Below are positions 8,021 through 32,000 of a DNA stretch of 32,000 bases, piece after piece. The notes below the pieces were generated by a model. The model had not been told where the DNA came from. It saw nothing but the letters and a program-made list of their open reading frames with translations, and made no database searches. The DNA is taken from positions 1,650,001 to 1,682,000 of the forward strand of contig NC_007517.1 of NCBI RefSeq assembly GCF_000012925.1. The letters are read 5' to 3'. Both the position numbers and the translations under genes were made by a program. This DNA comes from Geobacter metallireducens GS-15 (GTDB lineage: Bacteria > Desulfobacterota > Desulfuromonadia > Geobacterales > Geobacteraceae). Each line of letters opens with the position of its first letter. Within the stretch, counting starts at the first letter, position 1.

Positions 8021-8058
8021 CCGGGTACTTTGCTGACTTGATTGTTCAAGACCCAGAA

Positions 8059-8100
8059 AGCCCGCAGCGAGAGATTAATACTCTCGTTGCGGGCTTTTTC
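8059..8100 (+). terminator. strong terminator-like hairpin in the rhs upstream region
   Basis: AGCCCGCAGCGAGAG-ATTAATA-CTCTCGTTGCGGGCT forms a 15-bp stem with one G:U pair, followed by TTTTT. It lies 168 nt after the stop of the 7130-7891 gene and 53 nt before the rhs ATG. Confidence 0.65.
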
Positions 8101-8152
8101 CTTTGGTGCCTGCAGACAATCAGTTCTGAATGAATTTTTCCAGGGGGGGATC

Positions 8153-14100: not shown

Positions 14101-15037
14101 CGACGCCCATCGGCTGACCAATATCACCGGCTCGGTCAGCTACCAGTACAAATACGACGGCGCCGGGAACCGCCTGGAGGCGACCCGAAACGGCGTAACA
14201 ACGAGGTACATCTACGACGCCAACGGCAATCTCCTGGCCGAGGCGGACGGCACCAACGCCATCACCCGTTACTACATCTACGGCAATGGCTTGCTCGCCA
14301 TGGTGGCCTCGGGCAACCAGCCGTACTGTTACCACTTCGACGCAACCGGCCACACCGTGGCCTTAACCGATGCCGGCGCTAATGTGGTGAACAGGTATGC
14401 CTACACTCCCTTCGGGGCTATCGGCAACCAGCAGGAAACCATCAGCCAGCCGTTCAAGTATGTGGGAAAATATGGCGTCATGAGCGAGCCGAACGGCTTC
14501 TATTACATGCGAGCACGGTATTATGATGCCAGCGTCGGCAGGTTCATCAGCGAAGACCCCAAGGGCTTCGACGGTGGGGATGTGAACTTGATGGTTTATG
14601 TTGGCAACAACCCCGTCATGTTGATTGATCCTAATGGTTTAAGTGCTTTCGGAAAAATCTGGAACCTTCCCAATACCCTATTAGGACTGGCTTGGGGCGG
14701 TATTGGAATGCTTGGAGGTGCACACGCATCCATTGGAAACAATGCAATTCAATTCGAAAAACATCCTTTTATGTTTGGCGCGATTACATTAGGGAACACC
14801 ATATCTTACGCAAAAGACTTCGGACCAAATACAATGCTGGACAATGGCACTGTTGGTAAGCATGAATCACAACATACGATTCAGGGTGAACAGTTGGGGC
14901 CGCTTTATCTTCCTTCCAACATTCTTGGTTTAGCCGCAGGACAAATAATCAATGGAAATACACATGGCCCTGCAAATTGGAACGAAAGAGGGCCACAATC
15001 AACACCGCCAAGTCCTTGGGGAGGATATGGAAAATGA
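8153..15037 (+). CDS. RHS/YD-repeat polymorphic toxin, Sec-signal-bearing, 2294 aa
   Basis: The ATG at 8153 is preceded by a G-rich SD and followed by the signal peptide 'MGGTRYLIVGILLMAVLSLCRASFA'. There are dozens of YD repeats of the form 'YxYDxxGNL/R..'. An N-terminal plug 'DPVDMATGFWMYSNTDLTLSG...RSYNS...GYGWSHNY' is present. The RHS-associated core ends with 'YYMRARYYDASVGRFISEDP...NNPVMLIDPNGL'. The track start at 8042 (TTG) runs through the upstream terminator hairpin and is rejected. Confidence 0.95.
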   Translation: MGGTRYLIVGILLMAVLSLCRASFADTVTYGYDDFGRLTAMTTVDATRLTRISYLYDNVGNFTNQTVTVGILVNMPDANLRNAVCSALGKNPSDPLTRDDLALLTTLSAAGKGISDLTGLEWAVNLTSADLRNNNITSTAPLAGLTKLTVLQLDGNPVATTAAVPAMGTVGLVLATLLLMLLTMSQRFRLPGRFIALLGLCFSLSVTTVNAADGPAGPGWLEVQGTPVTPQEADAFYQAKGVIQPLSAPLGSITPQSATTATPEIAALARSLKNDPRLIYEYVRNNVDYAPYFGSLKGATLTAIEGSGNDFDQASLMISLLRASGYTAQYVYGTMTIPVGGDPNQKDMQHWLGVDATSSVIGTVLANGGIPYSQSGTSFTVNRVWAQATIAGATYLFDPAFKPHQTITGIDLKTAMGYSTSGLLAAAGGTVGTDYVQSLNEAGLKSALDGYTLNLAAYIRANYPNAKTSEIIGGSAIVPQTLAAFPTSLDFATTVTATWTDIPDAYVHKVRIQHGKIDQTLNIPDLAGQKLSIVYRTGSITTASAVAAPATTEPQVNLAPLPTATTPVDGQLTITPAGPTDTTLPNIIVPGSYLDGSKTIVPMATGSANFGSIYPASAGASSTSMTWGPITNPNSVTVQIVVTLTSNPQGAYSITQYAGTNNVAPGASISPKVVFSNAGQTAGTKTGQLHIQWFYNGTPITGADSYYDLTGYVANAMSLGGYGLNAQAYMNTPYTGNARLSNNGSLPLAVTAKTLTGTGAARFQLVSGTAATTLAASTFQDIPVTYLADVHGTQTASINMGFTYDGMTYSATNYLPLQGQAIYKPDFTGSLGFNAGTPYLAYPVDGTAHLANAGSQPLTVTGFSITGTDAARFTITGGNAAGTIASGGHRDITIRYLANSVGTHSATLHITYTYDGIANSIDLNLVGQTLSTPVAQLWLDDTMLAEELEPVTGVDLSTMTISVMHQYTGSFADQSVNYTLTRGSTYAIVYDFGGSRLGKLLEKRERQMQAYRESGLADTSRQVLTESLNVIGQTWMRDTTLDANLLSQIGGVIDLRQHRFGIVAQETGYYIDVKAQVSTVSPIHGDTIARDAYFRTTGHLASAMEHGVLEQMQANSPAVSTVKLLQLNNAAGKKAFMVTSANYAAIKPQLANYSTDDLNSFQTSVTSGNTLILPENGKIPLQVWSGKGYIDFNMGGTSRHVGMIIGGGYNGGYGAIKAPVAVNTEMAHVNVNLSPQATIPKIGSVDPVDMATGFWMYSNTDLTLSGGAGGLSLRRSYNSGSNNIKDSLGYGWSHNYHLYVEPHSSTPFGLGQRQPVDAAALIVASVATLDVMNGTPDVKSWLTGALIGKWAMDTLTNNAAGCHLETDVLTFVKLPDGSFASPPGVTSTLVKNGSLYQVNERFGRTVTFDGSNNANAMTDADGNGVTFTYTGGKLSKVTDNFGHSLDFTYTGDLLTSVTDKAGRSVAYGYTGTDLTTYTDPEGKVWTYGYDTSHRILTLKNPRTVTTVTNVYDAFGQVQSQTMPRQTGTATYNLYFNGYRNIEEDGTGHQTIYHFDEQKHLLGVENTLGQRTTRYYDGQGHVVAETDPRGFSTGYLYDGNHNLTRVTDPFIRYTDTTYDSQFRLTDVTDPLGHTTHTDYDTKHHPVKTTVYPATGQSIYTQKSYYANGLVNTTTDGRGVITTLTQDTYGNPATSKTSTAPAITYVYDGIGRMTSLTDQEGAKTSFTYDKRSLPTGSTDPLTKNTSLTYYDDGTLWTKTDRNGKTTTFTYTPTGKTNSIAYAGGTSVTYTYDQDDNLTKMLDSLGTTTYGYDDANRLTSTTDPRGFAIGYDRDANGNISRITYPGNKTVSYTYDALNRIKTVTIDWLNKTATYTYDDAGRMLDLTHFNNTYTRYTHDNANRLTALENRLSNAGSPIATYAFTLDGNGNRTGVTQTVPIALNATASNTNFTMNLQKNRLAQAGSTSFTYDNEGQLATRTGDIYTFDDAHRLTNITGSVSYQYKYDGAGNRLEATRNGVTTRYIYDANGNLLAEADGTNAITRYYIYGNGLLAMVASGNQPYCYHFDATGHTVALTDAGANVVNRYAYTPFGAIGNQQETISQPFKYVGKYGVMSEPNGFYYMRARYYDASVGRFISEDPKGFDGGDVNLMVYVGNNPVMLIDPNGLSAFGKIWNLPNTLLGLAWGGIGMLGGAHASIGNNAIQFEKHPFMFGAITLGNTISYAKDFGPNTMLDNGTVGKHESQHTIQGEQLGPLYLPSNILGLAAGQIINGNTHGPANWNERGPQSTPPSPWGGYGK
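8369..8627 (+). other. leucine-rich-repeat segment of the rhs product
   Basis: 'LTTLSAAGKGISDLTGLEWAVNLTSADLRNNNITSTAPLAGLTKLTVLQLDGNPV' fits the LxxLxLxxNxI periodicity. It is preceded by one YD-repeat pair, 'TYGYDDFGRLT...YLYDNVGNFT'. Confidence 0.65.
8939..9362 (+). other. transglutaminase-like fold domain with substituted catalytic residues
   Basis: 'GSGNDFDQASLMISLLRASGYTAQYVYG ... NRVWAQATIAGATYLFDP' matches the transglutaminase-core pattern G-x-C-x-x-F...R..G.PAR.V.G ... H.W.......W..FDP. However, Asn (nt 9077-9079) replaces the Cys and Arg (nt 9299-9301) replaces the His. Confidence 0.5.
9968..10951 (+). other. array of three Ig-like (choice-of-anchor-D/ASH-type) repeats in the rhs product
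   Basis: Three ~105-aa units share '...NxG..PLxVTxxxxTGxxAxRFxxxxG.....xxxxxxDIxxxYLAxxxGTxxAxxxxxYxYDG...'. Confidence 0.6.
11885..14641 (+). other. RHS shell (plug, YD-repeat cocoon and RHS-associated core ending in DPNGL)
   Basis: See the rhs CDS evidence. The aspartyl autoproteolysis-type motif 'PVMLIDPNGL' ends at nt 14641. Confidence 0.85.
14642..15034 (+). other. C-terminal toxin tip (131 aa), putative zincin-like metallopeptidase/membrane-active domain
   Basis: This is the sequence after DPNGL. It contains a Gly-zipper-like stretch 'LLGLAWGGIGMLGG', then 'AITLGNTISYAKDF...GKHESQHTIQGEQ' with an HExxH motif. GC content is roughly 40% against >60% in the shell, judged by eye on sampled 60-mers. 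Confidence 0.55.
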
Positions 15038-16288: not shown

Positions 16289-17371
16289 ATGATCACAAAT
16301 GCTGTCATTCCCCTGGCCCGAAGAGCTATGAGCACCCACCCCGCCCTCATGGGGATGGCCACCGCCACCTCCGGTTTTATCCGGCAGATGTCCATTAAGA
16401 CATTCTCCCCAAGGCTCAGGCGCAGGGAACTGGCCCTGCGGAACGAACTGCCAAGCATCCACACGGTCCGTAACCACTTGTTCAAAGAGAAGGGACAGGG
16501 AGAGGTTCCCACTATAGTCATCGGGGGGTTCGTTCCCGATGCCACCGAGGCGGTGGAGTTCCAGCGGGAGATCTTCCGGCGCCACGGTTCCGTCTACTAT
16601 ATTAATTTCTCCCGCTCCGGCTTTTCGGCTCCTTTCTTTTTCGCTCAACTGGCGGACCTGATTGAAGAGTTGAACCGCAAGGGGCAGAAGCCGATCATTT
16701 TTTCCGTCAGTTTCGGCTGTAGTCTGGTGTCCCGCTTTTTCCGGGACGGTCACGACACAGGCCTCTCCATCAGGGGGACAGTGTTGACGAGCCCGGTCCT
16801 TTGCATCGAGGATCTGGTCCGCCCCGAAGGGGAGCGGCGCGGAGGAGTCAGGATGCTGGAGAGCAACCTGAAGCGGATTCTGCGGGCTGAGACCACCAAG
16901 GGGGATGAGTTGAACCGCCAGATCGAGCGGGCTCGCCGCTGCTTCCAGGCCCTCTTTGAGGCAGGGGCCGAGAATCGGGTCCTGTCGAACCGACACCTGT
17001 CCATACGGAAAAGGATCATGGGGGTTCTGGAAAGCACTTCCTGTCTAGGCGGATACGAAAGGGTCATGGCCCTGCGGGATGCCCCGACGACAACGGACGG
17101 CACGGTTTTCGGGGGACCGGCCCTGGTGCTCCTGGCCGAGAAGGAAGACGAACTCCTGGTTAACACCTCCCCGACGCTTGCGGCCCTTCGGGACTCGGAA
17201 ATCCGCGCGCGGCTCTTCCCCCGGGGCAAGGTGCGGACGGTCATGTCCCCCGCAAGCGGCGACGCCGTGGCCCATGCCTCCCTCATCTTCCACCAGCACT
17301 GCTATAATCCCCTCATCGAGGCGTGGTACGACAGACTCACAACGCCGCTGCGCCTGGCGGTGGTTTCGTGA
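16289..17371 (+). CDS. alpha/beta-hydrolase-like protein of unknown specificity
   Basis: 360-aa ORF containing 'PTIVIGGFVPD' and a nucleophile-elbow-like 'SVSFGCS' (SxSxG variant). A late 'DAVAHASL' could carry the catalytic His. GGGAG lies ~10 nt upstream of the ATG. Confidence 0.65.
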   Translation: MITNAVIPLARRAMSTHPALMGMATATSGFIRQMSIKTFSPRLRRRELALRNELPSIHTVRNHLFKEKGQGEVPTIVIGGFVPDATEAVEFQREIFRRHGSVYYINFSRSGFSAPFFFAQLADLIEELNRKGQKPIIFSVSFGCSLVSRFFRDGHDTGLSIRGTVLTSPVLCIEDLVRPEGERRGGVRMLESNLKRILRAETTKGDELNRQIERARRCFQALFEAGAENRVLSNRHLSIRKRIMGVLESTSCLGGYERVMALRDAPTTTDGTVFGGPALVLLAEKEDELLVNTSPTLAALRDSEIRARLFPRGKVRTVMSPASGDAVAHASLIFHQHCYNPLIEAWYDRLTTPLRLAVVS

Positions 17372-18951
17372 CGGCATCTTCCCCCTTCAGGGCACTGACG
17401 GCGCCGGCCCTGGATCTGATGCTGAAAAGCGGCGCCTCAGCCCTTGCCAGGAACTTCGAGTCCCGCGACTCCGTGGCCTGCCAGCGGGAGATGCTGCAGC
17501 GCCTGGTGGCGGTCGGAGGGGGCACCAGATTCGGCCGTGATCACGGACTGGCGGAATTGGCGGGAGAGCCCATCGACCGGCTTTACGCTCAATACCGCCG
17601 ACGGGTCCCGATCCGTACCTACTCTGACTTCTGGAACGAGTACTTTCAGGAGGGGCTTCGGGAGGAGAATGGCAGGAAGCGGCTTCTTCTGGAAGATGCC
17701 ACCTGGCCGGGCAAGATCCCCTTTTTCTGCGAAACCTCGGGCACCACTGCCCCCACCAAGTACATTCCATTCTCACGGGAGATGTTCGCCGCCAACAAGC
17801 GGGCCGCCCTGGACATGACCGCCTGCTACCTCCACCGCAACCCCAGGAGCCGTCTCTTCCAGGGAAAGCTCCTCTATATGTCCGGAAACACGAATCTCAC
17901 GGATCTGGGGGATGGGGTCAAAAGCGGCGACATGAGCGCCATCACCCTGCGTCATCGCCCCTTCTTCCTTAAACCCTTCGTTGCGCCGGGAATACGGGTG
18001 GCAGCCCTGCCGTGGGAAGAAAAGGTGGTGGAGTTGGCGGGGATGCTCCTCTCGGACCGCTCCATCCGGGGGATCTCCGGCGTTCCCCCCTGGATCATCC
18101 TGCTGCTGCAGCGGGTGGAGGAGATGGGGCACCGCTCCCTCTCGGAGCTTCTGCCCAATCTCGAACTCATCATCCACGGCGGCACCAGCATGAAACCCTA
18201 CCGCCGGGAATTCGACATTCTCTTCCGCAACCGACTTCCCAACTATCTGGAGGTACTCCCTTCATCGGAAGCGTTCATGGCCTTTCAGCTCCTGGGGGAG
18301 GAGCGGATGCGCCTTGCCCCCCACTACGGGGTATTCTTCGAGTTTGTCCCCTTCGAGGAACTTGACGAGCGGGGAGTGCCAGCCCCCGACGCCCCGGCGA
18401 TTCCCCTGGAGGAGATCGAGACCGGGCGGCGCTACGCCGTCATCCTTACCACCTGCTCCGGGCTCTGGCGCTATCATATCGGCGACACCATCCGCTTCAC
18501 CGACCGGGAGCCCCTCTTTATCGAATTCACGGGCAGGGACAAGTTTCTGGACCGCTTCGAGGAAAAGGTAACCCAAGGAGAAGTGGAGGAGGCGGTGGCC
18601 CGGCTTAACCAGACGGGTGGCATAGAGGTGCGGGAATTCATGGTGGGCCCTGACATCGCAAGCCGGCGACACGTGTGGGTGCTGGCGGTTGGAGAGATGA
18701 ACGAGCGTGATAGCGGAACCCTGGAGCGTCTTCTGGACGCAACCCTTCGATCCCTGAACGCCGACTACGCCACGTTCCGGGAACAGGGACGAATTGCGCC
18801 ACCGCGGGTTGTGACGGTGGAAGAGGAACTCATCTACCGCTGGTCACGGGAGGTGCGGGGAAAGCTCGGTGGCCAGAGTAAAATCCCCCACATCGATCCG
18901 ACGGTTGACGGAGAGATGATTATGAGCCTGACGGAATTCGCCGGCCATTGA
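17368..18951 (+). CDS. GH3-family acyl-acid amido synthetase (adenylating enzyme)
   Basis: 'FCETSGTTAPTKYIPFS' matches the GH3 P-loop-like motif SSGTT..K.IP. Also present are 'YMSGNTNL', 'IHGGTSMKPY' and 'GLWRYHIGDTIRF'. I prefer the GTG at 17368, which overlaps the upstream TGA (GTGA). Alternative starts are the ATG at 17419 and the track ATG at 17323, which lies inside the upstream gene. Confidence 0.8.
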   Translation: MTASSPFRALTAPALDLMLKSGASALARNFESRDSVACQREMLQRLVAVGGGTRFGRDHGLAELAGEPIDRLYAQYRRRVPIRTYSDFWNEYFQEGLREENGRKRLLLEDATWPGKIPFFCETSGTTAPTKYIPFSREMFAANKRAALDMTACYLHRNPRSRLFQGKLLYMSGNTNLTDLGDGVKSGDMSAITLRHRPFFLKPFVAPGIRVAALPWEEKVVELAGMLLSDRSIRGISGVPPWIILLLQRVEEMGHRSLSELLPNLELIIHGGTSMKPYRREFDILFRNRLPNYLEVLPSSEAFMAFQLLGEERMRLAPHYGVFFEFVPFEELDERGVPAPDAPAIPLEEIETGRRYAVILTTCSGLWRYHIGDTIRFTDREPLFIEFTGRDKFLDRFEEKVTQGEVEEAVARLNQTGGIEVREFMVGPDIASRRHVWVLAVGEMNERDSGTLERLLDATLRSLNADYATFREQGRIAPPRVVTVEEELIYRWSREVRGKLGGQSKIPHIDPTVDGEMIMSLTEFAGH

Positions 18952-18980: not shown

Positions 18981-21152
18981 TCAGAAGAGCAAACTCTCCA
19001 ACCCCAAGGTTCTCCTGAAATCCCACAGATTCATGAACAGGGCGTCGAAGCGCAGCCGGCGCGCCTGTTCCTCTTCCCGCTTCCAGAAATGAAGCTCGCT
19101 TACCGGATAGAGATAGCCGAATCCGTAGGCGGTCAGGTCCGTCCGCTTACGCGCCACAAGGCTCACCGGGTAACGATATCCCGCCTCCTGTTCCTTTACG
19201 AGAACCAGTGCCCGTTCACGAACCGCCGCCGCCCTGGCAAGAAGCCGGAGCGCCCCGGCTCCGGGCCGCTTCTCGCGCGGCAGCTGTCGTTGGGCCATGA
19301 TTGCACGGATGGTGAGTGCCCGATGACCGGCCCGCAGGGCCGTGGCCGTGAGACTCCGCTCCAGTTCCCGCGAAATTCCCCGTAACCCTTCCTTACCATT
19401 CGGAACCGTTGTCACGAATCGTTTCGATTCCCTCCTGATTTCCAGAGCAAGCCGTTCCATCTGCCGGCTGAATTCCTCCAGATCGGCCACCGTTGCCGCA
19501 GGTAACGCTGTTGAGCGCTTTGATGCGATGAGTTCTCCGTACCGGAACGGCGGCTCCGGCTGGAACGGCTTGTTCAGGGGCCACGGCATCTCGGAAAAGG
19601 GGGCCAGGGCTGCGGTATAGCGGAGAAGCTCCCGCTCCTTCAGGTAGTGCTCCTGGAGGGTGAGGGCCTCTTGCCAGAGCTGCCGGAGACGGCGGTCGGG
19701 AAAGAGATCGCCGAGCACGGAGAGGGGGGACGTCGCCTCGTCGCGGCCGCTGGAAGCATGCCGCCACGACCAGCGGGCGATGCTCCAGTCGGTGAGCCAG
19801 TTGCCCCACTCCCAGCCCGAGGTGAAGGTAAGGTGTCCGGTCACGCCAAGGCGCTCCATGGTCATCATGTCGTGGTGACGGGCCGAGAGATAGGGGAGGA
19901 GCATCTGGGGGACGGAATTGTCGAAGGCGACCCAGTAGGACGATTCGGGCCAGTACCAGGTCTCCCGCCGCCGCGATTCCTGTTCGGCCAGCTTCAGCAT
20001 GAAACGCTGATTAGTGTTGCCGTAGACCGGGGCTTTTTCCTCCGATGCGGAGTAGCACATGACCGTGTGCACGAGGATGCCGCAGTCTCGCGGCAGGTCG
20101 TCCACCGGCGGCGGGGTGCCGTTCGCCTCTTGGGCGCCGGGACGGATAACGTGGGTGGCGTGGAAGAAGCGGGCGCCATGGCGCTTGATCACCTGCTCCG
20201 CCGCATGGTTGCGCAGGGAGGGAGCGAGCCGGTCGATGCGGGGCAGATGCTCGCCCGTGGCGCTTTCGAGAGTGACGAAGTCCCAGGGGACCTGGAAGAG
20301 CCAGTCAAGGTTCCGGTCGATCTGGCGCCGGTAAAAAGGCCTCAGGAGCTTCACCGTCTGAAATGCCTGCTGCTGGAGCATGGAGAGGGATATCTCCACC
20401 CCCACGGCGATCCCCCGCTGGTGGGCATACTCCACGAAAGCCCGGGCGTGGGGAGGCCAGCGGTCGCGATCCACACCCCGCAGGAGGAAAAACTGCATCG
20501 TGTTCTGGCCGTTGCGCGCCAGCCAGTCGATATATTCCTTCACATCGGCGAGGGCGCCGGGATACGAGGGGTCGTGGAGTTGGGTCGCCAGTTCGGTGGG
20601 GTGAAGGGTATGGAGGTGGAACCCGCGGCTGGCGAAGCGGGGGGTGGCGCTCCAGCGAAAGCGGCTGGTGAGTGGCCACGTGGCGTGGCGGGGAACGATG
20701 GTCTGCCGGGGGTGGATGAAGCGGTAGCCGAGCCGCTCCTGGAGGAGACCGTAGAGGCCGTTGCTGATCCCCGCTGCCGTGGTGGCCGAGAGAGTCAGTA
20801 CCGTGGCGTCTCTGACGTGGCGGGAGTTCCAGGTGTATGATTGGGCTGTGCTGTCTCGAAGGGATTCCGTGGTGCTTTGGGGAAGGGTAGGGAGAACCAG
20901 GCGGATGGAGGCCTTGGAATCGTTCAGGGTGATCCGGGCGTCGGGGAACCCTTTTTTCATGAGACGAAGCGTGTCATCGACGGTATTTCTGGCCACCGGG
21001 GCGGCAAGAAGCGACGGTGGGGCGATAATGCCGACGGAAAGGGGGCGGGCGTCGGCGGCTGAGCAGAAAACCAACCAGCCGGCCATGATGAAGAGAACGG
21101 GTGACAGGAGCACTGCCACCCGTTCGATGCGAGGAAACGGGGAAACTGTCAA
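18981..21152 (-). CDS. secreted protein, possibly glycoside-hydrolase-like (GH20-domain-2/DUF4838-like N-terminus + TIM-barrel-like core); function uncertain
   Basis: 723-aa ORF with a signal-peptide-like 'VAVLLSPVLFIMAGWLVFCSAADA'. The N-terminal 'LTLSATTAAGISNGLYGLLQERLGYRF' resembles the G..YG.y.lLe.lG.rf motif of hexosaminidase-like domain 2; this comparison is from memory. The start is TTG with no clear SD, so the start coordinate is uncertain. Confidence 0.65.
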   Translation of the reverse strand: MTVSPFPRIERVAVLLSPVLFIMAGWLVFCSAADARPLSVGIIAPPSLLAAPVARNTVDDTLRLMKKGFPDARITLNDSKASIRLVLPTLPQSTTESLRDSTAQSYTWNSRHVRDATVLTLSATTAAGISNGLYGLLQERLGYRFIHPRQTIVPRHATWPLTSRFRWSATPRFASRGFHLHTLHPTELATQLHDPSYPGALADVKEYIDWLARNGQNTMQFFLLRGVDRDRWPPHARAFVEYAHQRGIAVGVEISLSMLQQQAFQTVKLLRPFYRRQIDRNLDWLFQVPWDFVTLESATGEHLPRIDRLAPSLRNHAAEQVIKRHGARFFHATHVIRPGAQEANGTPPPVDDLPRDCGILVHTVMCYSASEEKAPVYGNTNQRFMLKLAEQESRRRETWYWPESSYWVAFDNSVPQMLLPYLSARHHDMMTMERLGVTGHLTFTSGWEWGNWLTDWSIARWSWRHASSGRDEATSPLSVLGDLFPDRRLRQLWQEALTLQEHYLKERELLRYTAALAPFSEMPWPLNKPFQPEPPFRYGELIASKRSTALPAATVADLEEFSRQMERLALEIRRESKRFVTTVPNGKEGLRGISRELERSLTATALRAGHRALTIRAIMAQRQLPREKRPGAGALRLLARAAAVRERALVLVKEQEAGYRYPVSLVARKRTDLTAYGFGYLYPVSELHFWKREEEQARRLRFDALFMNLWDFRRTLGLESLLF

Positions 21153-21169: not shown

Positions 21170-23581
21170 CTAGAAGTTGGCAGCCTTGCCCGGCTGCCGC
21201 AGAATGGTGCTGTAGGCATCTCCGGTGAGGGACGCCCCCTGCTCGGCAAAGGCCCGGGCATTGCGGCCCATGGTGTGCATCAGGTCCGGATCGCGCACGA
21301 GGGTGAGGAGGGAGGCGGCAAGGCCGTCCTCGTCCATGTGCCGCAGAATGAGGCCTGTTTCTCCCTCGACCATGAGCTCATGGGGCCCCCCTTCGTCCGA
21401 GACGATTACCGGGAGTCCCGAGGCCTGGGCCTCAAGGACCACGTTACCGAAGGTGTCGGTGGTGCTCGGGAAGACGAAGGCGTCGGCTGAGGCATAGCAG
21501 CGCTGCAGTTCCTCTCCCTCCCGATAGCCGGTGAAGTGGACCGGGTATCCGGCCAGCCGCGCCTCCATTTCGGCCCGGTAGGGGCCATCCCCCACGACAA
21601 TCAGCCAGGCCGGTGCGCCGTAGTCCACGATGCGGATAAAGGCGTCAGCCAGAAGCTCCAGGTTCTTTTCCCGGGAGACCCGCCCCACGTAGAGAAATTT
21701 CACCCCTTCGCCGATCCCGTGGCGTTTCCAGTAGTGGGGATCCCGCCGCTCGGGAGTGTAGGCGTCGATATCGACCCAGCGGGGGAGGGGACGGGTCTTT
21801 TCTTCCGGCAATCCCTGTTCCACCAGCTGCCGCCGGGTGCTGGCGGATGGGACCATCACCTCGGACAGCTGGCCGTAGAACCAGATCATGTAGTTCCAGG
21901 CGGCTTTTTCCAGCATCTCGTCGTTGGTCAGGTCGCGAACGTACTGGGGAATATCGGTGTGGTAGGTGCCGGCGGCGGGGATGTCCATGAGCCGTGCCGC
22001 CATGAGGCCCAAGAGCCCGATGGTCCCGGGAGTGCTCACGTGGATGGAGGTGAAGCCTTCCCGCTCAACGAAGTCGATCACATCGAGAATGGGAGGGAAG
22101 TGGAGGCGGATCTCCGGGTACTCGGGGAGGACGAAGTCGCCGATGGACGTGAAGTTCATGACGCCGTCGGCGTGGCCGGTCGCCCGGGGGGACGAGGTGA
22201 TGACCGTGAGTTCTATTCCCCGGCTGCGGGCCGTGGCAATAAGCCGGCGGATGGTGATGGCCACGCCGTTGATCTCGTCCAGGGTGTCGGTGAAGAGGGC
22301 GATCTTTTCGCGCTGATTCCCCTGGTTGGCGAGGGGGAAGCGGTCGGCCAGCTCCCGCATCAGCTCCTTGCCCCGGTGCTGATGGTGGAACGCCAGGTAG
22401 TAGGGGGAGATGAGGAGATGGACAAGCCCGACGGTGCTCAGGGACTGGATTATGGAGAAGATGCCCGAGGAGAATGAGAGCTTGGTCAGCTTTTCCGAAT
22501 AGAGGTAGAGCATCCGGTTGGCCAGGTAGCTGGTGATGGCGAAGATCTTCCGGTTGCGGGTCTCGGGGCTGATCCGGGCCATGAATCCCGTGTCGTTCAG
22601 CACCCGTCTGGCCTCCCGGTCCAGAACCTCCTCGAAGCTGGCTCCGCCGCGCTGCTCGTAAATCTCCGGGAGGTTCCTGCGCACCAGGAGCCGCAGCCGC
22701 TCCCGCAGGGTCATCTTCCTGCTGGTCTCGAACATGCGATTGAGGAGGGCATTCACGAAGGGGGTGGAGCGGTTTGTCCCCCCGTCGAGCCGTTCACGGT
22801 AGAAGTTGTAGGCAATCCCGTAGAGGCTGTGGGCCAGGGTCAGGGCGTCGCCGTCCTCGCCGTCGGCCCAGGTTTCGCGGTTGAAGACGGCGTCCAGAAA
22901 CCCCGCCGGCGTCTCGCCGCGCTGGGCGGAGGTCCAGGCCCGGCCGATGAAGAGCCCGCCGTGGTCGTCGGAACCGCCGACACGTCCCTTGATCCAGGGC
23001 TCAGGCCCGGTGGGGACAATGCCGTGCTTCTCGGCAAGTCGTTGGATACGCTCGGGGGTCAGGGTGTTCAGAAGCTCGTCGGTGAAGCCGTTGAAACGCT
23101 TGGCCCTGGCACCGTTACGCACTTCGATGGTGTTGAAGAGGAGGAGCAGCTTTTCGATGTGGTCGGCAGAGAGCTTGTCGTTCTGGGCATAGAGGGGATG
23201 GGCGAGAAAATGGGCAATGCGTTTCTCGTGCAGATAAGAGGCCAGCTCGAAAACGTTTCGCCGAAGCTGCATGAGATCCTGGAAGACGCTTTCCCTGAGT
23301 CCCAGGGCCACCACGTGGACCTTGCAGCCGTCTTCGGGAAAGTAGGAAGTGAGCTCGGCACCGATGATGACGCCGGGAAGATGGGCAATCTCCAGGGCGC
23401 CGGTGATGGTGTTGTGGTCGGTGATGGCCACGTAGTCCATGCCGGCCGCTTTGGCCGTGTCATAGATGTGCCGGGGTGAGGTGAAGCTCTCAGGGCACTT
23501 GAACTTGCGCAGCGCCCAGTAGGTAGGCTTGTTGGAGTGGCTCGAATGAACGTGAAGGTCGCATCGGTACTCTGTTTTCAT
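21170..23581 (-). CDS. PHP-domain phosphoesterase fused to a GT4 (group 1) glycosyltransferase
   Basis: 803-aa ORF. The N-terminus has 'CDLHVHSSHSNK...YVAITDHNTITG' (PHP metal ligands). The C-terminus has 'FPSTTDTFGNVVLEAQASGLPVIVSDEGGPHELMVEGETGLI' (GT4 E-x7-E region). A hydrophobic linker 'GIFSIIQSLSTVGLVHLLISPYYLAF' connects them. Confidence 0.9.
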   Translation of the reverse strand: MKTEYRCDLHVHSSHSNKPTYWALRKFKCPESFTSPRHIYDTAKAAGMDYVAITDHNTITGALEIAHLPGVIIGAELTSYFPEDGCKVHVVALGLRESVFQDLMQLRRNVFELASYLHEKRIAHFLAHPLYAQNDKLSADHIEKLLLLFNTIEVRNGARAKRFNGFTDELLNTLTPERIQRLAEKHGIVPTGPEPWIKGRVGGSDDHGGLFIGRAWTSAQRGETPAGFLDAVFNRETWADGEDGDALTLAHSLYGIAYNFYRERLDGGTNRSTPFVNALLNRMFETSRKMTLRERLRLLVRRNLPEIYEQRGGASFEEVLDREARRVLNDTGFMARISPETRNRKIFAITSYLANRMLYLYSEKLTKLSFSSGIFSIIQSLSTVGLVHLLISPYYLAFHHQHRGKELMRELADRFPLANQGNQREKIALFTDTLDEINGVAITIRRLIATARSRGIELTVITSSPRATGHADGVMNFTSIGDFVLPEYPEIRLHFPPILDVIDFVEREGFTSIHVSTPGTIGLLGLMAARLMDIPAAGTYHTDIPQYVRDLTNDEMLEKAAWNYMIWFYGQLSEVMVPSASTRRQLVEQGLPEEKTRPLPRWVDIDAYTPERRDPHYWKRHGIGEGVKFLYVGRVSREKNLELLADAFIRIVDYGAPAWLIVVGDGPYRAEMEARLAGYPVHFTGYREGEELQRCYASADAFVFPSTTDTFGNVVLEAQASGLPVIVSDEGGPHELMVEGETGLILRHMDEDGLAASLLTLVRDPDLMHTMGRNARAFAEQGASLTGDAYSTILRQPGKAANF

Positions 23582-24244: not shown

Positions 24245-24289
24245 TCACAAAAGATTAATCCCGGAAAGGCCATGGGCCTTTTCCGGGAT
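24245..24289 (-). terminator. strong hairpin + T-rich tail, either a terminator or a 5'-leader structure
   Basis: On the minus strand, ATCCCGGAAAAGGCC-CAT-GGCCTTTCCGGGAT forms a 14-bp stem with one bulged base, followed by TTAATCTTTTGTG. It lies 255 nt after the Lgt-like stop and only ~12 nt before the SD of the 185-aa gene. Confidence 0.5.
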
Positions 24290-24547: not shown

Positions 24548-25591
24548 TCAAACACGCTCCCGGTGCACATGGAAGAAGATGCGCGAGCCGGTGACGGTGC
24601 TTCGGCCGGTATAGAACAGGATCGCAAGCCAGATGCATTGCAGGGGGAGGATGGCGGCCGGGGTCCAGAGGGCAGCGGCGATCCTGCCGGGATCGGGAAT
24701 GATTGGCGTCTCTCCCCGGAAGTAGAAGGCGGTGGCGGCTCCATAGGCAACCGCCAGAATCCCCATGATCTGGTAGGCGGAGATGCGGTTGTCGCCCCGG
24801 TAGTCGTCCCGCAGGAATTCGGACACCGTGCGCCAGAGCTGGGTGATTCCCATGGCGATGAGGAAGGCGAGGGCGAACTGTCCCGAAAGGAAAAGTGCTG
24901 CGCTGGCCAGGGCCGTGGCGGTGTAGAGGACGGCGGTGATCCCCTGGATCGGCACCAGGGGGATTCCGGCCAGGTTTCCGGCGTAGCTTGCCTTTTTCGT
25001 TTCGCTCCGGAAGATGAAGGCCCTCCGCGTCAGAAGGCGGCCGATGAGCGGGTGTGCAGCCGACAGGGGCTTGCCGTAGCAGCAGCCGAAGCTGATGCAG
25101 GCGAGTCGGCCGAATCCTTCCCCCAGGGCATAGGCGCTTGCCACGGCCGCCAGGAGCGCCATGACCGGCAGCCGTCCATCGGCTGGGGCCAGGAGCCGGT
25201 TCATGAGGCTCACCACGAAGGGGGCGGTGATGGTGCCCACAAAGACCGCCCCACCCACGGTGAAGGTGTGGCGCTTCCCCTCGACGATCCGCGCCACCAG
25301 CCGCGATGCCGGGACACAGAGCGCAAGGGTCACGCCAAGGGTGGAGAGGGTGAGGACGAGCGGCGCACCGAGGCTTGCAGCCAGGGCCAGAAAGAGGAGG
25401 GCCGCGGCTCCGTAGGCGTTGGCCGACAGGATGCCGTACCATGTGATGTTCACGCCCTGCCAGCTGCCGTCGGCCTCGCGGGATACCGGCACGGCCGCCG
25501 CCATCTGCCAGCGCTCCGCCGGCAGAAATCTGATTCCCCACCAGAGGTAGATGGCTGACAAAACGGCAGTGACTACTATGAATAGGGTCAT
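24548..25591 (-). CDS. prolipoprotein diacylglyceryl transferase (Lgt)-family membrane protein, paralogue-like
   Basis: 347-aa polytopic membrane ORF. 'GFGRLACISFGCCYGKP', 'IPLVPIQGITAVLY' and 'LWRTVSEFLRDDYRG...ISAYQIMGI' match Lgt-family (PF01790-type) conserved blocks as I recall them. AGGAG lies 6 nt upstream of the ATG. Confidence 0.7.
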   Translation of the reverse strand: MTLFIVVTAVLSAIYLWWGIRFLPAERWQMAAAVPVSREADGSWQGVNITWYGILSANAYGAAALLFLALAASLGAPLVLTLSTLGVTLALCVPASRLVARIVEGKRHTFTVGGAVFVGTITAPFVVSLMNRLLAPADGRLPVMALLAAVASAYALGEGFGRLACISFGCCYGKPLSAAHPLIGRLLTRRAFIFRSETKKASYAGNLAGIPLVPIQGITAVLYTATALASAALFLSGQFALAFLIAMGITQLWRTVSEFLRDDYRGDNRISAYQIMGILAVAYGAATAFYFRGETPIIPDPGRIAAALWTPAAILPLQCIWLAILFYTGRSTVTGSRIFFHVHRERV

Positions 25592-25608
25592 GGACGGCTC
25601 CTGATGGT

Positions 25609-26607
25609 TCAGTTCGTTACCGCAACGGCGATGAGCGAACGGACCTTGACGTCGGTTTCGACCAGGGGGCGCCCGAAACCGTGGGAGAAGCGGCTCGCGG
25701 CCCGGGTGTCGTGCATGTTGCGCACGATGTCGTCGGCAAAGTGCATCCGGTCCCGCTGGAAGATGAGGACATCGGTGCTGCTGCCGGGGCGGTAGAGGCT
25801 CTTGGGCACCCCTCGGCGAAGGAACATGCCGGGCTCGACGGGGCGCGGGGCCGTGTACCCCTCATAGCTGTAGCACTGCACGATCTGGCCGATCATGAGG
25901 GCCACCACCTCGATCATCGCCACGAGCCCCACGCCGGTTCCCCCCGGCACGTCGGTATCGATGACCGTCACCACCCGTCGGTTTTTGGAGAAAGGGGTCG
26001 CTTCGATGACGACGGCTCCCGGGTTGCATGAGTGGTAACCGCCGTCGATTTCATAGATGTCGCGCACCGTTCCCGCCACCGGGGTATGGTTGTAGTGGTA
26101 TTTGTCCGGCGTCAGGCGGAACACGGCGAATTCCCCGCCGGTGAACGCCCGGAGCCATTCCTCCTTGTGGCGGCCCAGCAGCTCCTCGAAGTCGAAGAAC
26201 TTTTCCTTGAGGAAGAGGGCCGAGGTGTCACGAAACGATCCGACCAGCACCCGGGCGTCAGCCGGCGAGACCACGGCCCACTGCACCTCGGGCATGGGAC
26301 GGCACTGCTCGTAGCGGATCCTCCGTTCAAAGACCTTGCGGGGCGTGTCGAGGGACTCGGGCGGATCGAGGCACTCGTCCAAGTCCACTCCGCATTCTTC
26401 CAGAAAACGGCGGTTGCTGCCGAAGGGGAGGTCGAAGTTGATGAAGCCGAGCAGACCCGACGACCAGCTACTGGTGGCCATTTTAAAGAGAAACGGCGCG
26501 TTTTCCCGCGCCCCGTGGTAGAGGAGCCGGATCAGCCGGTCGCCGAAGAGTCGTTCGTTGCAGACAGATCCGCTTTCACGTTCGATGTATTGATGCTGGT
26601 CAATCAT
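25609..26607 (-). CDS. psd: phosphatidylserine decarboxylase-family pyruvoyl enzyme
   Basis: 332-aa ORF. 'FRLTPDKYHYNHTPVAG' fits the PSD pattern L.P.DYHR.H.P..G. 'YRPGSSTDVLIF' is a GS(S/T) self-cleavage site. The ATG overlaps the stop of the upstream 812-aa gene (ATGA at 26604-26607). Confidence 0.85.
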   Translation of the reverse strand: MIDQHQYIERESGSVCNERLFGDRLIRLLYHGARENAPFLFKMATSSWSSGLLGFINFDLPFGSNRRFLEECGVDLDECLDPPESLDTPRKVFERRIRYEQCRPMPEVQWAVVSPADARVLVGSFRDTSALFLKEKFFDFEELLGRHKEEWLRAFTGGEFAVFRLTPDKYHYNHTPVAGTVRDIYEIDGGYHSCNPGAVVIEATPFSKNRRVVTVIDTDVPGGTGVGLVAMIEVVALMIGQIVQCYSYEGYTAPRPVEPGMFLRRGVPKSLYRPGSSTDVLIFQRDRMHFADDIVRNMHDTRAASRFSHGFGRPLVETDVKVRSLIAVAVTN

Positions 26608-29042
26608 TGCAAGTGCCTCACCTTGTGGGCGTTGATACGTGCTGCGGCATGCTCTGTATCGTTCGCAATACTGGCAATAACCAGCGCGATGACCGTCCGC
26701 AGCGACTCGGCCGGCAGGTTTTCGTCGAGTAGGTCGCGCCTGACTCGCCGAAGGTAGGAGGCGCCGCCGCCTCCGCCGGTCAGATCAGCCAGGAGTGTGG
26801 CGGTCGAAGAATCACCTTCCGTCGCCTGCCGGTCGAGGGCAGTGAGCCGTTCTTCGAGCATGTCGAGGGCCTCGCTCAGGTGTCTGAAGCGAAGCCCTTG
26901 CCGATAAAACGATTCCGCCCCCCGGTTGAAATCCGCGGCAGGGGTTGCCATAGCCGAGCGAGTGCCGGTTCCGGCCAGGATTCCCCGCGTGAGCCGTCCC
27001 GCCGCGGTAAGGCGGTCAGGGAGCTCCAGCCGCGCGGTCAGTTCCTCCATCCTCTCTTTCATCCCCAGCATCTCGATCAGGTCTGCGCCATCGGTCATGA
27101 GGGTGCGCACCAGGGCACGGCGGTATTCCTCCACCCGGACCCGAAGGTAGCCCGGGTAGCGCCGGCTCTGCCTGCTGCCGTCCGTCCGTTCGAGAATCGA
27201 CCTGAGGAGCCGGTTGCGGGTGGCCCGGCGGATGTAGATGGTGGGGACTCCCATGGCCGCGGCGAAGAAGATCTGGCGACGCTCGCTCTCGATGACCGGA
27301 TTGTCGGGGATGTCCCGGTGGCTCAGTTTCCCTTCCGCCATGAGCTTGTAGGCAAAGAGGATGACCAGATTCTGGAGGTCGGCGGCGCCCCCCAGGTCGT
27401 CTTCAAAGGACTCGAAGAGGCTGTAGTGGCGCCCCTCGAAGCCGGAGAAGCCCACCACATGCTTCTCGCGGAGCTTGCAGAGGAGATAGACCGACATCTG
27501 AGCGTCGAATATCCCCAGCTCGGCCAGATCGCGCCGCAACCGGTCGCCGTTGCCGACCCTGCCGTCCAGGGCCGGGCTGCGAGTGGTGGAGAGGAGGCTT
27601 ACCAGGTAGTCGATGAGGCGGAAGTCCGGCACGACGTCGCCGGTGAGGCCGAAGAGCCTGCTGATGGAACGGTCGAGCCATTCGGGGCCGAAGGGGGTGA
27701 TGACGTTGCCGAAAAAGGAGAGCCGCGCCTTTTTTCGCCACCGCCGCCAGAGCATCCGCAGGTGGGTGTAGTCCAGTTCGTGGGGGAGGAATCCCAGGGC
27801 CCGCTCCGGGTGAAAGTCGGTGAATCCGAGCCGGTAGGGGGCTGCCGTATAGGTACCGACGAAGAGGGGGAGAAAGTGTTCCGTCGCCTTGATGACCAGA
27901 TCCCCCAGGTGTTTCTCGTGATGGGGCGTGAACCCGGAGGAGGGATCATCGAGGGCGGCGCCCAGCCGCAGGCTTCCCAGGGAGAGGTGGGTGCCGTTGT
28001 TGGCGAGGCTTACGTCAGAGACGCTCGGCAGCACCACCAGGTTGTTCTGGATGATCCCCGCGTCGCGCAGCTTGGCCACGGTGTTGAGGCGGCTGCGGGA
28101 GAGGACCTGGTGGCAGAGGTGCATGTAGCGGTGTTTCTCTTCCCCCCGGTCCCATCCGGAAAGGCAGGGGCTCATGAAGAGATCCCGGTAGAAGGAGTCG
28201 GCGATGAGGCCGTTCAGCTCCTTCTGGCGGACCGGCGGATGGGGTGCCAGATAAACCATGGCCCGTTGTCCGTTGGCGGAGAGGCCGAAGGCGGTATTGG
28301 CGTACATGATCAGGAGTTGCGTCAGAAGATAGCGGATGGCCTTCTCCCGGGCCACCCCCTTGCCCGGACCGCTGCCGGAAGCAGTGGTGACCACGTGGAA
28401 CGAGAAGGTCTCCGGGGAGGTGTTGTCGTTGAGGAAGTGCCCCATGAGGCGCTCCCCCGTGGCACGGATGGCGGGATGGGCGCTGGTGCCGGCGGCATCG
28501 GCCAGGGCCAGCTTGATGAGGTAGCTTACGGGGAGGCGAAGCCACTGTTCGCCGTCTTTCAGGGCGATGAAGCGTCCCGCGTCGCTCCGCTCCCCCGAGG
28601 CAAGATCGGACTTGTTCGCCCTGAGATCGGCGGTGAAGACCCGATCGGCAAAGGGTGAGAGCATCCGGCGGGGAAACCGCACCCAGCTGTTCTCCCAGAC
28701 CTGTTCGCGGTTGCGGGAGAGAAAGCGCTCCAGACCGGACACGGCGCTCCGAGGCGCTTCTCCGGCAGCGGCGCGCCGGGCGATGGCGGCAAAATAGACC
28801 GATTCCTCGATGGCAAGGGGAAGGTCGACGTCTCCCCGTTGTCCGGCGACTGCCGCCTGAAGTTCGGTTTCAGTGCCGGCGGTGGTGTCGCCGGCGGCAA
28901 AGGGGAGCGACGGGGCTCGAACCCCTCCATTCTGCAACTCGGTACCTATTCGGGCCAGGATGTCCGGTATGGGCTCCGACTGTACGGACTCGGTCCTGAT
29001 GTTATTCAACAAGTGCAAGGCATTGTTGTTCGATTGCGACAA
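26604..29042 (-). CDS. large (812 aa) cytoplasmic protein of unknown function
   Basis: Long ORF with protein-like composition and no TM segments or signal peptide. It is translationally coupled to psd. I recognised no catalytic motif by eye. The start is TTG, with AGAGGG 4 nt upstream. The first internal Met is near residue 127, so the start is uncertain. The antisense 592-aa ORF is a shadow ORF. Confidence 0.8.
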   Translation of the reverse strand: MSQSNNNALHLLNNIRTESVQSEPIPDILARIGTELQNGGVRAPSLPFAAGDTTAGTETELQAAVAGQRGDVDLPLAIEESVYFAAIARRAAAGEAPRSAVSGLERFLSRNREQVWENSWVRFPRRMLSPFADRVFTADLRANKSDLASGERSDAGRFIALKDGEQWLRLPVSYLIKLALADAAGTSAHPAIRATGERLMGHFLNDNTSPETFSFHVVTTASGSGPGKGVAREKAIRYLLTQLLIMYANTAFGLSANGQRAMVYLAPHPPVRQKELNGLIADSFYRDLFMSPCLSGWDRGEEKHRYMHLCHQVLSRSRLNTVAKLRDAGIIQNNLVVLPSVSDVSLANNGTHLSLGSLRLGAALDDPSSGFTPHHEKHLGDLVIKATEHFLPLFVGTYTAAPYRLGFTDFHPERALGFLPHELDYTHLRMLWRRWRKKARLSFFGNVITPFGPEWLDRSISRLFGLTGDVVPDFRLIDYLVSLLSTTRSPALDGRVGNGDRLRRDLAELGIFDAQMSVYLLCKLREKHVVGFSGFEGRHYSLFESFEDDLGGAADLQNLVILFAYKLMAEGKLSHRDIPDNPVIESERRQIFFAAAMGVPTIYIRRATRNRLLRSILERTDGSRQSRRYPGYLRVRVEEYRRALVRTLMTDGADLIEMLGMKERMEELTARLELPDRLTAAGRLTRGILAGTGTRSAMATPAADFNRGAESFYRQGLRFRHLSEALDMLEERLTALDRQATEGDSSTATLLADLTGGGGGASYLRRVRRDLLDENLPAESLRTVIALVIASIANDTEHAAARINAHKVRHLQ

Positions 29043-29136
29043 GAGGCCCTCTCGTTCGGTATGTAGCGAGACATAAATTGCTGCAAGATACTATTTACCG
29101 GCTCCTGATGCCTGCTGTTAACGCCAGGTGAATGTT

Positions 29137-29379
29137 CTATGCAGCAGGCCGGTAGCAGGTGCATACGCCGCACTCGCATTCGTGCAGTTCAGCGACCCCA
29201 TGCACCAGTTCCAGCTCGCTCTCCGCAAAGGAGGAGCAGTACCCTTCCAGATTGAACCGGTACACCACCCCTTCGCCCTGGTCATTGGATATTCTGGCCG
29301 TGGTCCCCGGTTCCAGTTCTTCCCTTTCATCCTTCCTTCCGATGAATCGTACGAGATCGCCTTTGACTAACATGCGCAT
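29137..29379 (-). CDS. small (80 aa) protein with a C-terminal CxCxxCxC cluster
   Basis: GAGGAGG lies 7 nt upstream of the ATG. The sequence is MRMLVKGDLVRFIGRKDEREELEPGTTARISNDQGEGVVYRFNLEGYCSSFAESELELVHGVAELHECECGVCTCYRPAA. It is on the same strand as the 812-aa gene and ends 94 nt upstream of it. Confidence 0.6.
   Translation of the reverse strand: MRMLVKGDLVRFIGRKDEREELEPGTTARISNDQGEGVVYRFNLEGYCSSFAESELELVHGVAELHECECGVCTCYRPAA

Positions 29380-29626: not shown

Positions 29627-32000
<2,374 letters not shown>

Follow-up and report, generated by a model that had tools for sequence, protein, structure and literature searches.

A 32,000-nt stretch of the Geobacter metallireducens genome (hereafter the window, within which coordinates are counted unless a locus is named) carries on its minus strand three coupled genes, which encode a large soluble protein of 812 residues, a relative of the phosphatidylserine decarboxylases (PSD) and a relative of the prolipoprotein diacylglyceryl transferase Lgt. 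The large, PSD-like and Lgt-like genes form a cassette that is conserved in at least five bacterial phyla and is recurrently associated with phosphate-starvation (Pho) genes; it is undescribed, and no curated family covers the large protein. The reading that we prefer, with a probability of roughly 40%, is that the cassette encodes a self-contained, phosphate-starvation-linked pathway, which would build a membrane-lipid head group at the cytoplasmic face of the inner membrane.

A three-gene unit conserved across phyla

The unit and the elements around it are, from the 5′ end of the minus strand:

29137-29379, minus strand: cysteine-rich open reading frame (ORF) of 80 residues, from the ORF list
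26604-29042, minus strand: large soluble protein of 812 residues with a TTG start at 29042, a candidate ATP-dependent carboxylate-amine ligase with no family match
25609-26607, minus strand: paralogue of the PSD-family pyruvoyl-dependent decarboxylases, 332 residues (PF02666)
24548-25591, minus strand: polytopic membrane protein of the Lgt family, 347 residues, with about nine predicted transmembrane helices (PF01790)
24258-24289, minus strand: palindromic hairpin with a 12-bp stem and a U-rich tail, the likely terminator of the three-gene unit

The stop codon of the large gene overlaps the start codon of the PSD-like gene as ATGA, a 17-nt spacer with AGGAG precedes the Lgt-like gene, and the three genes are translationally coupled. 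The three genes correspond to roughly Gmet_1483-1485. The hairpin has a folding energy of -26.1 kcal/mol (z = -3.0), and none of 200 shuffled sequences was as stable. This layout, including the overlap, the short gap and the closing hairpin, had been read from the DNA in the original prediction and is confirmed here. Rfam gave no RNA element across 23.5-30 kb of the window, and a scan for sigma-70 promoters gave no match. The large protein is present in the protein collection as an 801-residue version (TTG at 29009), as against the 812-residue ORF listed above.

Homologues of the large gene were examined at 80 genome loci (L numbers below denote loci), which come from Geobacteraceae, many orders of Desulfobacterota, Acidobacteriota, Nitrospirota, Nitrospinota and Planctomycetota. 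Of the 75 loci whose sequence extends far enough downstream, 74 have a PSD-like gene directly after the large gene, and an Lgt-like gene follows the PSD-like gene at 68 of 69, the exception being a locus from Geomesophilobacter (L004). In a reciprocal test on metagenome contigs that started from the Lgt-like gene, a PSD-like gene was found upstream in 67/69 cases and the large gene in 42/48. No further gene family occurs at more than about 20 of the 80 loci. Linkage of the large protein's homologues to psd- and lgt-like genes had been set beforehand as the test of the original prediction, and it holds. Its proposal of a dedicated pathway in place of housekeeping psd and lgt genes is likewise supported by the conserved linkage in five phyla, as well as by scores that lie far below the cut-offs of the housekeeping equivalogs (given below for each protein). 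Locus L166 has a DksA-like ORF between its PSD-like and Lgt-like genes. A reading of the cassette as a defence system was rejected, there being no PADLOC match.

The original prediction had been of a four-gene operon that included the 80-residue cysteine-rich ORF; the genes for the 812-, 332- and 347-residue proteins stand, and the fourth has to be given up. The ORF is preceded by a good Shine-Dalgarno sequence. Its exact sequence is absent from a collection of 15 billion proteins, none of the 80 related loci contains a homologue, and even L001, with 81% identity in the large protein, has another gene at this place. Since the ORF is neither conserved nor annotated, we rejected it as an operon member or substrate, and the unit is therefore a cassette of three genes, not four.

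Small cysteine-rich ORFs are also found beside the large gene in other lineages. These include a five-cysteine protein of 64-72 residues upstream of the large gene at 14 Desulfurivibrionaceae loci (L028, L030, L032, L034, L038, L039, L043-L046, L053, L065, L074 and L075), a seven-cysteine protein of 101 residues at three Acidobacteriaceae loci (L069, L070 and L076) and CxxC proteins of 63 and 74 residues in Geobacteraceae (L003, L005, L062 and L085), of which the 74-residue one at L085 resembles a Zn ribbon. They are lineage-specific, mutually non-homologous and missing from most loci, and Pfam holds no family for any of them. The 80-residue ORF of the window may be a similar case, or it may be spurious.

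The Lgt-like protein

Lgt moves a diacylglyceryl group from a phospholipid to a thiol, which is a non-phosphate nucleophile, and releases glycerol phosphate; we know of no other enzyme family that carries out diacylglyceryl transfer from a phospholipid to a nucleophile of this kind. The 347-residue protein matches the LGT family over almost the whole profile (PF01790, positions 8-239 of 240), with 39.6 bits against a cut-off of 24.9 and an E of 5e-10. With the NCBIfam lgt equivalog (NF000778) it scores 35.9 bits, where the cut-off is 334. A search of the PDB with the profile of the Lgt-like family found no Lgt, an hhalign comparison of this profile with the single E. coli Lgt sequence was not significant, and the Lgt-like genes went undetected by tblastn with E. 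coli Lgt at an E of 1e-3. No housekeeping copies of psd or lgt were present in the loci fetched.

In E. coli Lgt, R143, R239, E243 and R246 bind phosphatidylglycerol and diacylglycerol, and His103 of the HGGL motif is essential and has been proposed to bind the lipobox peptide (PMC4728403). The four lipid-binding residues are invariant in 28 Lgt-like sequences (as R162, R254, E258 and R261), which argues that the lipid substrate is retained; equivalents of Y26/G27, of G150/G154 and of the P-x-Q motif are also kept. His103 is lost in the Lgt-like family, where HGGL has become T-F-T-V-G-G-A. In addition, N146 is replaced by an invariant C165 and E151 by an invariant C170, with a third invariant cysteine, C171, directly adjacent (motif GRLACISFGCCYG).

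The Lgt-like protein has two more predicted transmembrane helices than Lgt. Over the 28 members, the loops on the side of the active site contain on average 21.3 lysines and arginines (range 15-26) compared with 2.1 (0-5) on the other side, which is the reverse of E. coli Lgt, with six on the periplasmic side, where its active site lies, and 13 on the cytoplasmic side. Under the positive-inside rule, a cytoplasmic orientation is predicted for the active site of the Lgt-like protein. Such an orientation would fit with partner enzymes for which no signal peptide or transmembrane segment is predicted, and it argues against exported lipoproteins as acceptors. Classical lipoprotein modification, one of the options raised in the original prediction, is thus unlikely, as His103 is lost and the active-site side is predicted to be cytoplasmic, and we infer that the Lgt-like protein is a cytoplasm-facing diacylglyceryl transferase with an acceptor other than a lipoprotein.

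The PSD-like protein

PSD acts on a beta-substituted amino acid that is borne by a lipid, and a pyruvoyl decarboxylase requires a substrate with a free alpha-amino acid. The family includes PsiD, a decarboxylase of free amino acids, to which the PSD-like family has a weak PDB match. The 332-residue protein matches PF02666 (PS_Dcarbxylase) with 127.9 bits against a cut-off of 22 (E = 5e-37, profile positions 4-195 of 198), so that the PSD and Lgt family identities given in the original prediction are both borne out by Pfam. It falls far short of the housekeeping equivalogs, the best of which in NCBIfam is NF001941 (116.4 bits, cut-off 371); with TIGR00163 it scores 71.7 bits (cut-off 111.75).

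Among 50 PSD-like members, P115-x-D117, Y170-H171..H174-P176 and P274-G275-S-S277 are invariant, and D117, H171/H174 and G275-S align to D90, H144/H147 and G253-S254 of the E. coli enzyme. With the GS(S/T) self-cleavage motif and the catalytic Asp and His residues kept, the PSD-like protein should be an active pyruvoyl decarboxylase. Neither a signal peptide nor a transmembrane segment is predicted for it.

The large protein

The 812-residue protein founds an unannotated family. Searches of Pfam, NCBIfam, the PDB and PADLOC, with the single sequence and with a profile, gave no family match, and its only PDB profile matches, to NifB, have an E of 0.25 and were taken as chance. The protein has more than 2,900 homologues, all of which are named hypothetical; at 50% identity they reduce to 741 representatives, and there are no distant annotated relatives. 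No transmembrane segment or signal peptide is predicted.

Two AlphaFold models were made, one of the full-length protein from 48 sequences (predicted local distance difference test score, pLDDT, of 74) and one of residues 30-640 from 143 sequences (pLDDT 79). The top Foldseek match of both is the bifunctional glutathione synthetase GshF (probability 0.80 and 0.77, E 0.2-0.3), with E. coli GshA, YbdK, type III glutamine synthetase, PafA, Dop and GlnA among the others, and seven of the 15 matches of the second model are to members of the carboxylate-amine ligase superfamily; no match of either model has an E of 0.001 or below.

Five invariant motifs occur in the order known from GshA and YbdK, in an alignment that was made by inspection and carries no statistics. 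The first, G-T-E58-T-E60-L-Q, resembles G-I-E-L-E-M-Q of YbdK and G-L-E27-R-E29 of GshA; the second, W-E117, would be the second Glu strand; the third, N-G-T-H352, parallels G-V-H150 of GshA; the fourth, F-L-P392-L-F-V-G-T-Y-x-A-A-P-Y, parallels F-V-P-H-F-I-A-L-S-A-A-S-P-Y of YbdK; and the fifth, either F-E536-G-R538 or D473-F-R475-L-I-D, parallels E-V-R-x-x-D. Residues E58, E60, E117, H352, E536 and R538 are located on predicted strands, whereas P392 and D473/R475 are not. In the original prediction this protein was an unknown in which no catalytic motif could be recognised; the point about motifs has to be qualified, collinear motifs of the glutamate-cysteine ligase/glutamine synthetase type being present.

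At locus L007, a gene of the GGACT/AIG2 gamma-glutamyl(amine) cyclotransferase family (9418-9846 of the locus, minus strand; Pfam 41-48 bits, above the cut-off) lies 77 nt upstream of the large gene and divergent from it. Related copies stand beside the large gene at L098, L105, L113 and L115 (Desulfuromonadales/Geobacteraceae), and Citrifermentans bemidjiense has a possibly degraded copy (L085, 9099-9497). These neighbours lend independent support to the ligase assignment. It is likely, although not established, that the large protein is a ligase of the glutamate-cysteine ligase/glutamine synthetase superfamily.

Phosphate-starvation genes around the cassette

The commonest neighbours of the cassette encode a PnpS/PhoR-type kinase (often directly upstream), a PhoB-type regulator, PstS, PstA, PstC, PstB/PhnC and PhoU, of which PstS, PstA and PhnC score above curated cut-offs. 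Other common neighbours encode a putative porin, which has no family match, and a thioredoxin-type arsenate reductase (11 loci). Of the 80 genome loci, 21 have pst, phoU or phnC genes within about 12 kb; these loci come from several phyla and show at least eight different arrangements, and pst/phoU-type genes are also found at 12 of 41 long metagenome loci. In C. bemidjiense Bem (CP001124; 10001-20086 of locus L085), the cassette itself is split by Pho regulators: between the large gene (Gbem_1868) and the PSD-like/Lgt-like pair come, in this order, a 74-residue ORF and genes for a kinase, a PhoB-like regulator, a PnpS/PhoR kinase (408 bits) and PhoU (229 bits; both above the cut-off), with pgsA located 2.5 kb upstream.

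Proposed pathway

The canonical chemistries of the three families meet at cysteine, or more generally at a beta-substituted amino acid, and on this ground we propose a cysteine-based pathway. In the proposed model, the Lgt-like enzyme would move diacylglyceryl from phosphatidylglycerol to the thiol of L-cysteine or of gamma-Glu-Cys, freeing glycerol phosphate and producing a phosphorus-free thioether lipid. Zn-based thiol activation is known from other thiol-alkylating enzymes, and the three invariant cysteines of the Lgt-like family could, by analogy, bind Zn to the same end. Next, the free alpha-amino-acid end of the thioether lipid would be decarboxylated by the PSD-like enzyme, for which S-diacylglyceryl-cysteine can be seen as a close analogue of phosphatidylserine. 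The large protein would use ATP to form an amide, most likely a gamma-glutamyl one, and could act either before the Lgt-like enzyme, in which case gamma-Glu-Cys would be its product, or on the amine left by the decarboxylase; glutamate-cysteine ligase likewise joins glutamate to the amine of cysteine. On balance, a phospholipid would be turned into a phosphorus-free aminolipid, and its phosphate would be recovered. The conserved linkage, the intact pyruvoyl machinery, the residues kept and lost in the Lgt-like family and the recurrent Pho genes nearby are observed, whereas the fold of the large protein, the topology, cysteine as acceptor, the sequence of reactions and the product are inferred.

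A bolder proposal, which we regard as doubtful, is that the products are a new class of thioether glycerolipids, comprising S-diacylglyceryl-cysteine, S-diacylglyceryl-cysteamine and their gamma-glutamyl derivatives, that the inward-facing Lgt paralogue forms them directly from phosphatidylglycerol together with the PSD paralogue and a new branch of the glutamate-cysteine ligase superfamily, and that these replace phospholipid under phosphate starvation in at least five phyla.

Several observations weigh against the proposed pathway. No product of it has been observed, and full-text searches of the literature returned no description of the cassette, of its locus tags or of a matching lipid. 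There are no pst/pho genes within the window itself, and the E. coli-type Pho box has three matches there against 1.65 expected, which is at chance level; none of them is convincing or at the cassette promoter. The linkage has its exceptions: the Lgt-like gene stands alone at L091, beside polyamine-type genes, and at L127, the PSD-like and Lgt-like genes occur without a large gene nearby at L133, L153, L155 and L166, and in the Geomesophilobacter locus no Lgt-like gene adjoins the large and PSD-like ones. For the large protein, Pfam gives no match even at an E of 10, the ligase assignment is without statistical significance in Foldseek (E of at least 0.2), and the segments that are modelled worst are the most conserved ones. 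Comparison by hhalign with single E. coli sequences was not significant either (E 0.09-0.12 for YbdK and 0.27-0.56 for GshA), and it was at this level that the YbdK comparison picked out the FLPLF...AAPY motif (P-L-F). The topology of the Lgt-like protein is a prediction from our own helix assignment and the positive-inside rule, and the loss of His103 could mean an altogether different chemistry.

Alternative explanations

Of the other explanations, the one that survives best, and that we nevertheless consider unlikely, is that the cassette builds on the head group of a lipid that already exists and that remains phosphorus-containing or is of the ornithine type. The PSD-like enzyme would in that case make an amine (phosphatidylethanolamine-like, cysteamine or taurine), the ligase would amidate this amine or a lipid carboxylate with ATP, and the part of the Lgt-like protein would be a supporting one that depends on phosphatidylglycerol. 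True phosphatidylserine decarboxylases are indeed the closest relatives of the PSD-like protein, candidate olsI/olsH genes lie directly upstream in several Geobacteraceae, and pgsA is near the cassette in C. bemidjiense. The amidation would resemble the ATP-dependent attachment of taurine to ornithine lipid, a reaction that has been shown biochemically and has as yet no gene assigned to it (PMC12971839). This scheme leaves the Lgt-like enzyme without a clear role, although it is the tightest partner of the PSD-like one (67/69), and it explains the link to phosphate starvation less naturally than does the proposed pathway; moreover, olsIH neighbours occur in Geobacteraceae only, and the cassette in five phyla.

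Less likely again is the modification of a protein or peptide, which corresponds to the thiol-lipidation option of the original prediction. Here the Lgt-like enzyme would attach lipid to a cysteine in a specific small protein of the cytoplasm or the inner leaflet, and processing of that protein or peptide would fall to its two partner enzymes. The only known acceptors of Lgt are protein cysteines, and small cysteine-rich or Zn-ribbon-like ORFs do stand beside the large gene in several lineages; these ORFs, however, are non-homologous and missing from most loci, and that of the window is unique and unannotated. A cysteine within a peptide offers no free alpha-amino acid to a pyruvoyl decarboxylase, and the histidine that has been proposed to bind the lipobox peptide is lost.

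It is improbable that the product of the cassette is a small soluble compound (for example a gamma-glutamyl-amine or a thiol of low molecular weight) that could act against the arsenate or oxidative stress accompanying phosphate limitation, with the Lgt-like protein as an anchor, an exporter or an unrelated membrane partner. Relatives of glutamate-cysteine ligase make gamma-Glu-Cys, PsiD is a precedent for a free amino acid as substrate, and both the arsenate reductase genes near the cassette and the GGACT-family neighbours would suit such a product, but the invariance of the phosphatidylglycerol- and diacylglycerol-binding residues in the Lgt-like family and the lipid genes in the neighbourhood point to membranes. 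That the cassette is no more than housekeeping psd and lgt beside an unrelated hypothetical gene, as the annotation of near-identical G. grbiciae genes as 'phosphatidylserine decarboxylase' and 'prolipoprotein diacylglyceryl transferase family protein' would have it, is highly improbable in view of the equivalog scores (116 against 371 and 36 against 334 bits), the failure of E. coli Lgt to detect the Lgt-like genes by tblastn, the absence of His103, the predicted inverted topology and the gene order kept across phyla.

Lipid genes and other neighbours

Further genes of the window, some of which have homologues near the cassette elsewhere, are:

21170-23581, minus strand: PHP phosphoesterase-GT4 fusion of 803 residues, with Pfam GT4 domains and a weak PHP match; lineage-specific
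18981-21152, minus strand: membrane protein of 723 residues with no Pfam match; lineage-specific accessory
17323-18951, plus strand: GH3-family protein of 542 residues, a candidate olsH-type partner
16289-17371, plus strand: protein of 360 residues with a weak alpha/beta-hydrolase match, whose gene overlaps the GH3-family gene
3598-4572 and 4569-5783, minus strand: SpoIIE/CBS PP2C-type phosphatase and HATPase_c_2 protein, which resemble partner-switching regulators
1182-2999, plus strand: AMP-binding acyl-adenylate-forming enzyme, homologues of which recur near the cassette
2-1018, plus strand: alpha/beta hydrolase, homologues of which recur near the cassette

The best NCBIfam match of the PHP-GT4 fusion is the lipid glycosyltransferase GlcN-PG synthase (128 bits, below the cut-off). 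The fusion is near the cassette at about 12 loci, and at L088 and L089 its gene lies between the PSD-like and Lgt-like genes, which gives some support to the envelope-glycolipid context suggested in the original prediction. A homologue of the 723-residue membrane protein (53% identical) is encoded between the PSD-like gene and the PHP-GT4 gene at L088, and others are found near the cassette at L119 and in L001. As a phosphoesterase joined to a lipid-type glycosyltransferase, the fusion recalls the PlcP/Agt pair of lipid remodelling, and the adjacent extra galE and glmS could supply its sugar donor. These two genes have been described as extra isoenzymes (Gmet_1486 and Gmet_1487) without counterpart in G. 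sulfurreducens (PMC2700814), and they are all that the genome paper on G. metallireducens mentions from this region.

The 360-residue protein and the GH3-family protein resemble the ornithine-lipid pair OlsI/OlsH, homologues of which have been reported in Geobacterales (PMC12971839). The candidate olsI/olsH pair is found 1-3 kb upstream of the large gene and on the same strand at L004, L005 and L062, and near it at L003, L054, L090, L102 and L117. Homologues of the alpha/beta hydrolase and of the AMP-binding enzyme (56-68% identity) are near the cassette at L003, L004, L062, L093, L113, L115, L116, L117 and L122. Those of the phosphatase and the HATPase protein directly follow the Lgt-like gene in C. 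bemidjiense and at L098, which points to an insertion of some 19 kb between the Lgt-like gene and this pair in G. metallireducens.

Elsewhere in the window, an ORF of 61 residues with one hydrophobic helix and no family assignment (29627-29812, plus strand) lies just upstream of galE and is kept in L001 (9555-9779). A protein of 2331 residues (8042-15037, plus strand) with RHS repeats, DUF6531, a transglutaminase core and LRR has the look of a polymorphic toxin, and its gene shows a strong negative GC skew; a stretch of low GC content (0.48-0.53) at 14-16 kb, where its C-terminal end is encoded, may hold the toxin tip and immunity genes.

Implications

If the proposed pathway is correct, it would join glycolipids, betaine lipids and ornithine lipids as a fourth enzymatic way of sparing phosphorus in membranes, and one present in dominant environmental lineages (iron and sulfate reducers, Nitrospira/Nitrospina, Acidobacteriota and anammox-related Planctomycetota). 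The Lgt fold, which to our knowledge has so far been met only in lipoprotein maturation, would have been turned around in the membrane and put to use in the synthesis of small-molecule lipids. A family of more than 2,900 hypothetical proteins of about 800 residues would gain a function, and phosphate-limited sediments and aquifers would be predicted to contain a sulfur-containing lipid biomarker. Should the exact chemistry prove wrong, the conserved cassette would still offer a clearly delimited target, with G. metallireducens and C. bemidjiense as tractable hosts.

Comparison with known systems

The Lgt-like protein keeps the phosphatidylglycerol/diacylglycerol centre of Lgt (PF01790; PMC4728403), so that the same donor chemistry is plausible. 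In contrast to Lgt, it lacks H103, has the cysteines of GRLACISFGCCYG in place of N146/E151, has two extra helices and is predicted to face inwards; its gene is in an operon with those of cytoplasmic enzymes, and an exported lipobox acceptor is unlikely. The PSD-like protein shares with Psd (PF02666) and PsiD the machinery of pyruvoyl self-cleavage (Asp, two His and Gly-Ser), and its core has 25-30% identity with E. coli Psd. It differs from housekeeping Psd in its equivalog scores, in an invariant Cys194 and a distinct N-terminal region, in having no adjacent pssA and in its partnership with an Lgt-like gene. The large protein has the best, although not significant, structural matches of both models in the GshA/GshF/YbdK superfamily; its motifs, as aligned by inspection, would follow the order of that superfamily, and invariant charged residues lie on predicted beta-strands. 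It exceeds these enzymes by about 300 residues, of which an insertion accounts for about 150 and a helical domain at the C terminus for about 170, and has no significant sequence or profile match to the superfamily.

As a whole, the cassette is best compared with the remodelling systems PlcP/Agt, BtaAB and OlsBA/OlsF/OlsHI. Unlike these, it would transfer diacylglycerol directly to a thiol, without free diacylglycerol as an intermediate, and its head group would be derived from cysteine. Like them, it adjoins pst, phoU and phoBR and has a phosphorus-free replacement lipid as its predicted product, and in Geobacteraceae it is found together with candidate olsI/olsH genes and a lipid-type GT4 glycosyltransferase.

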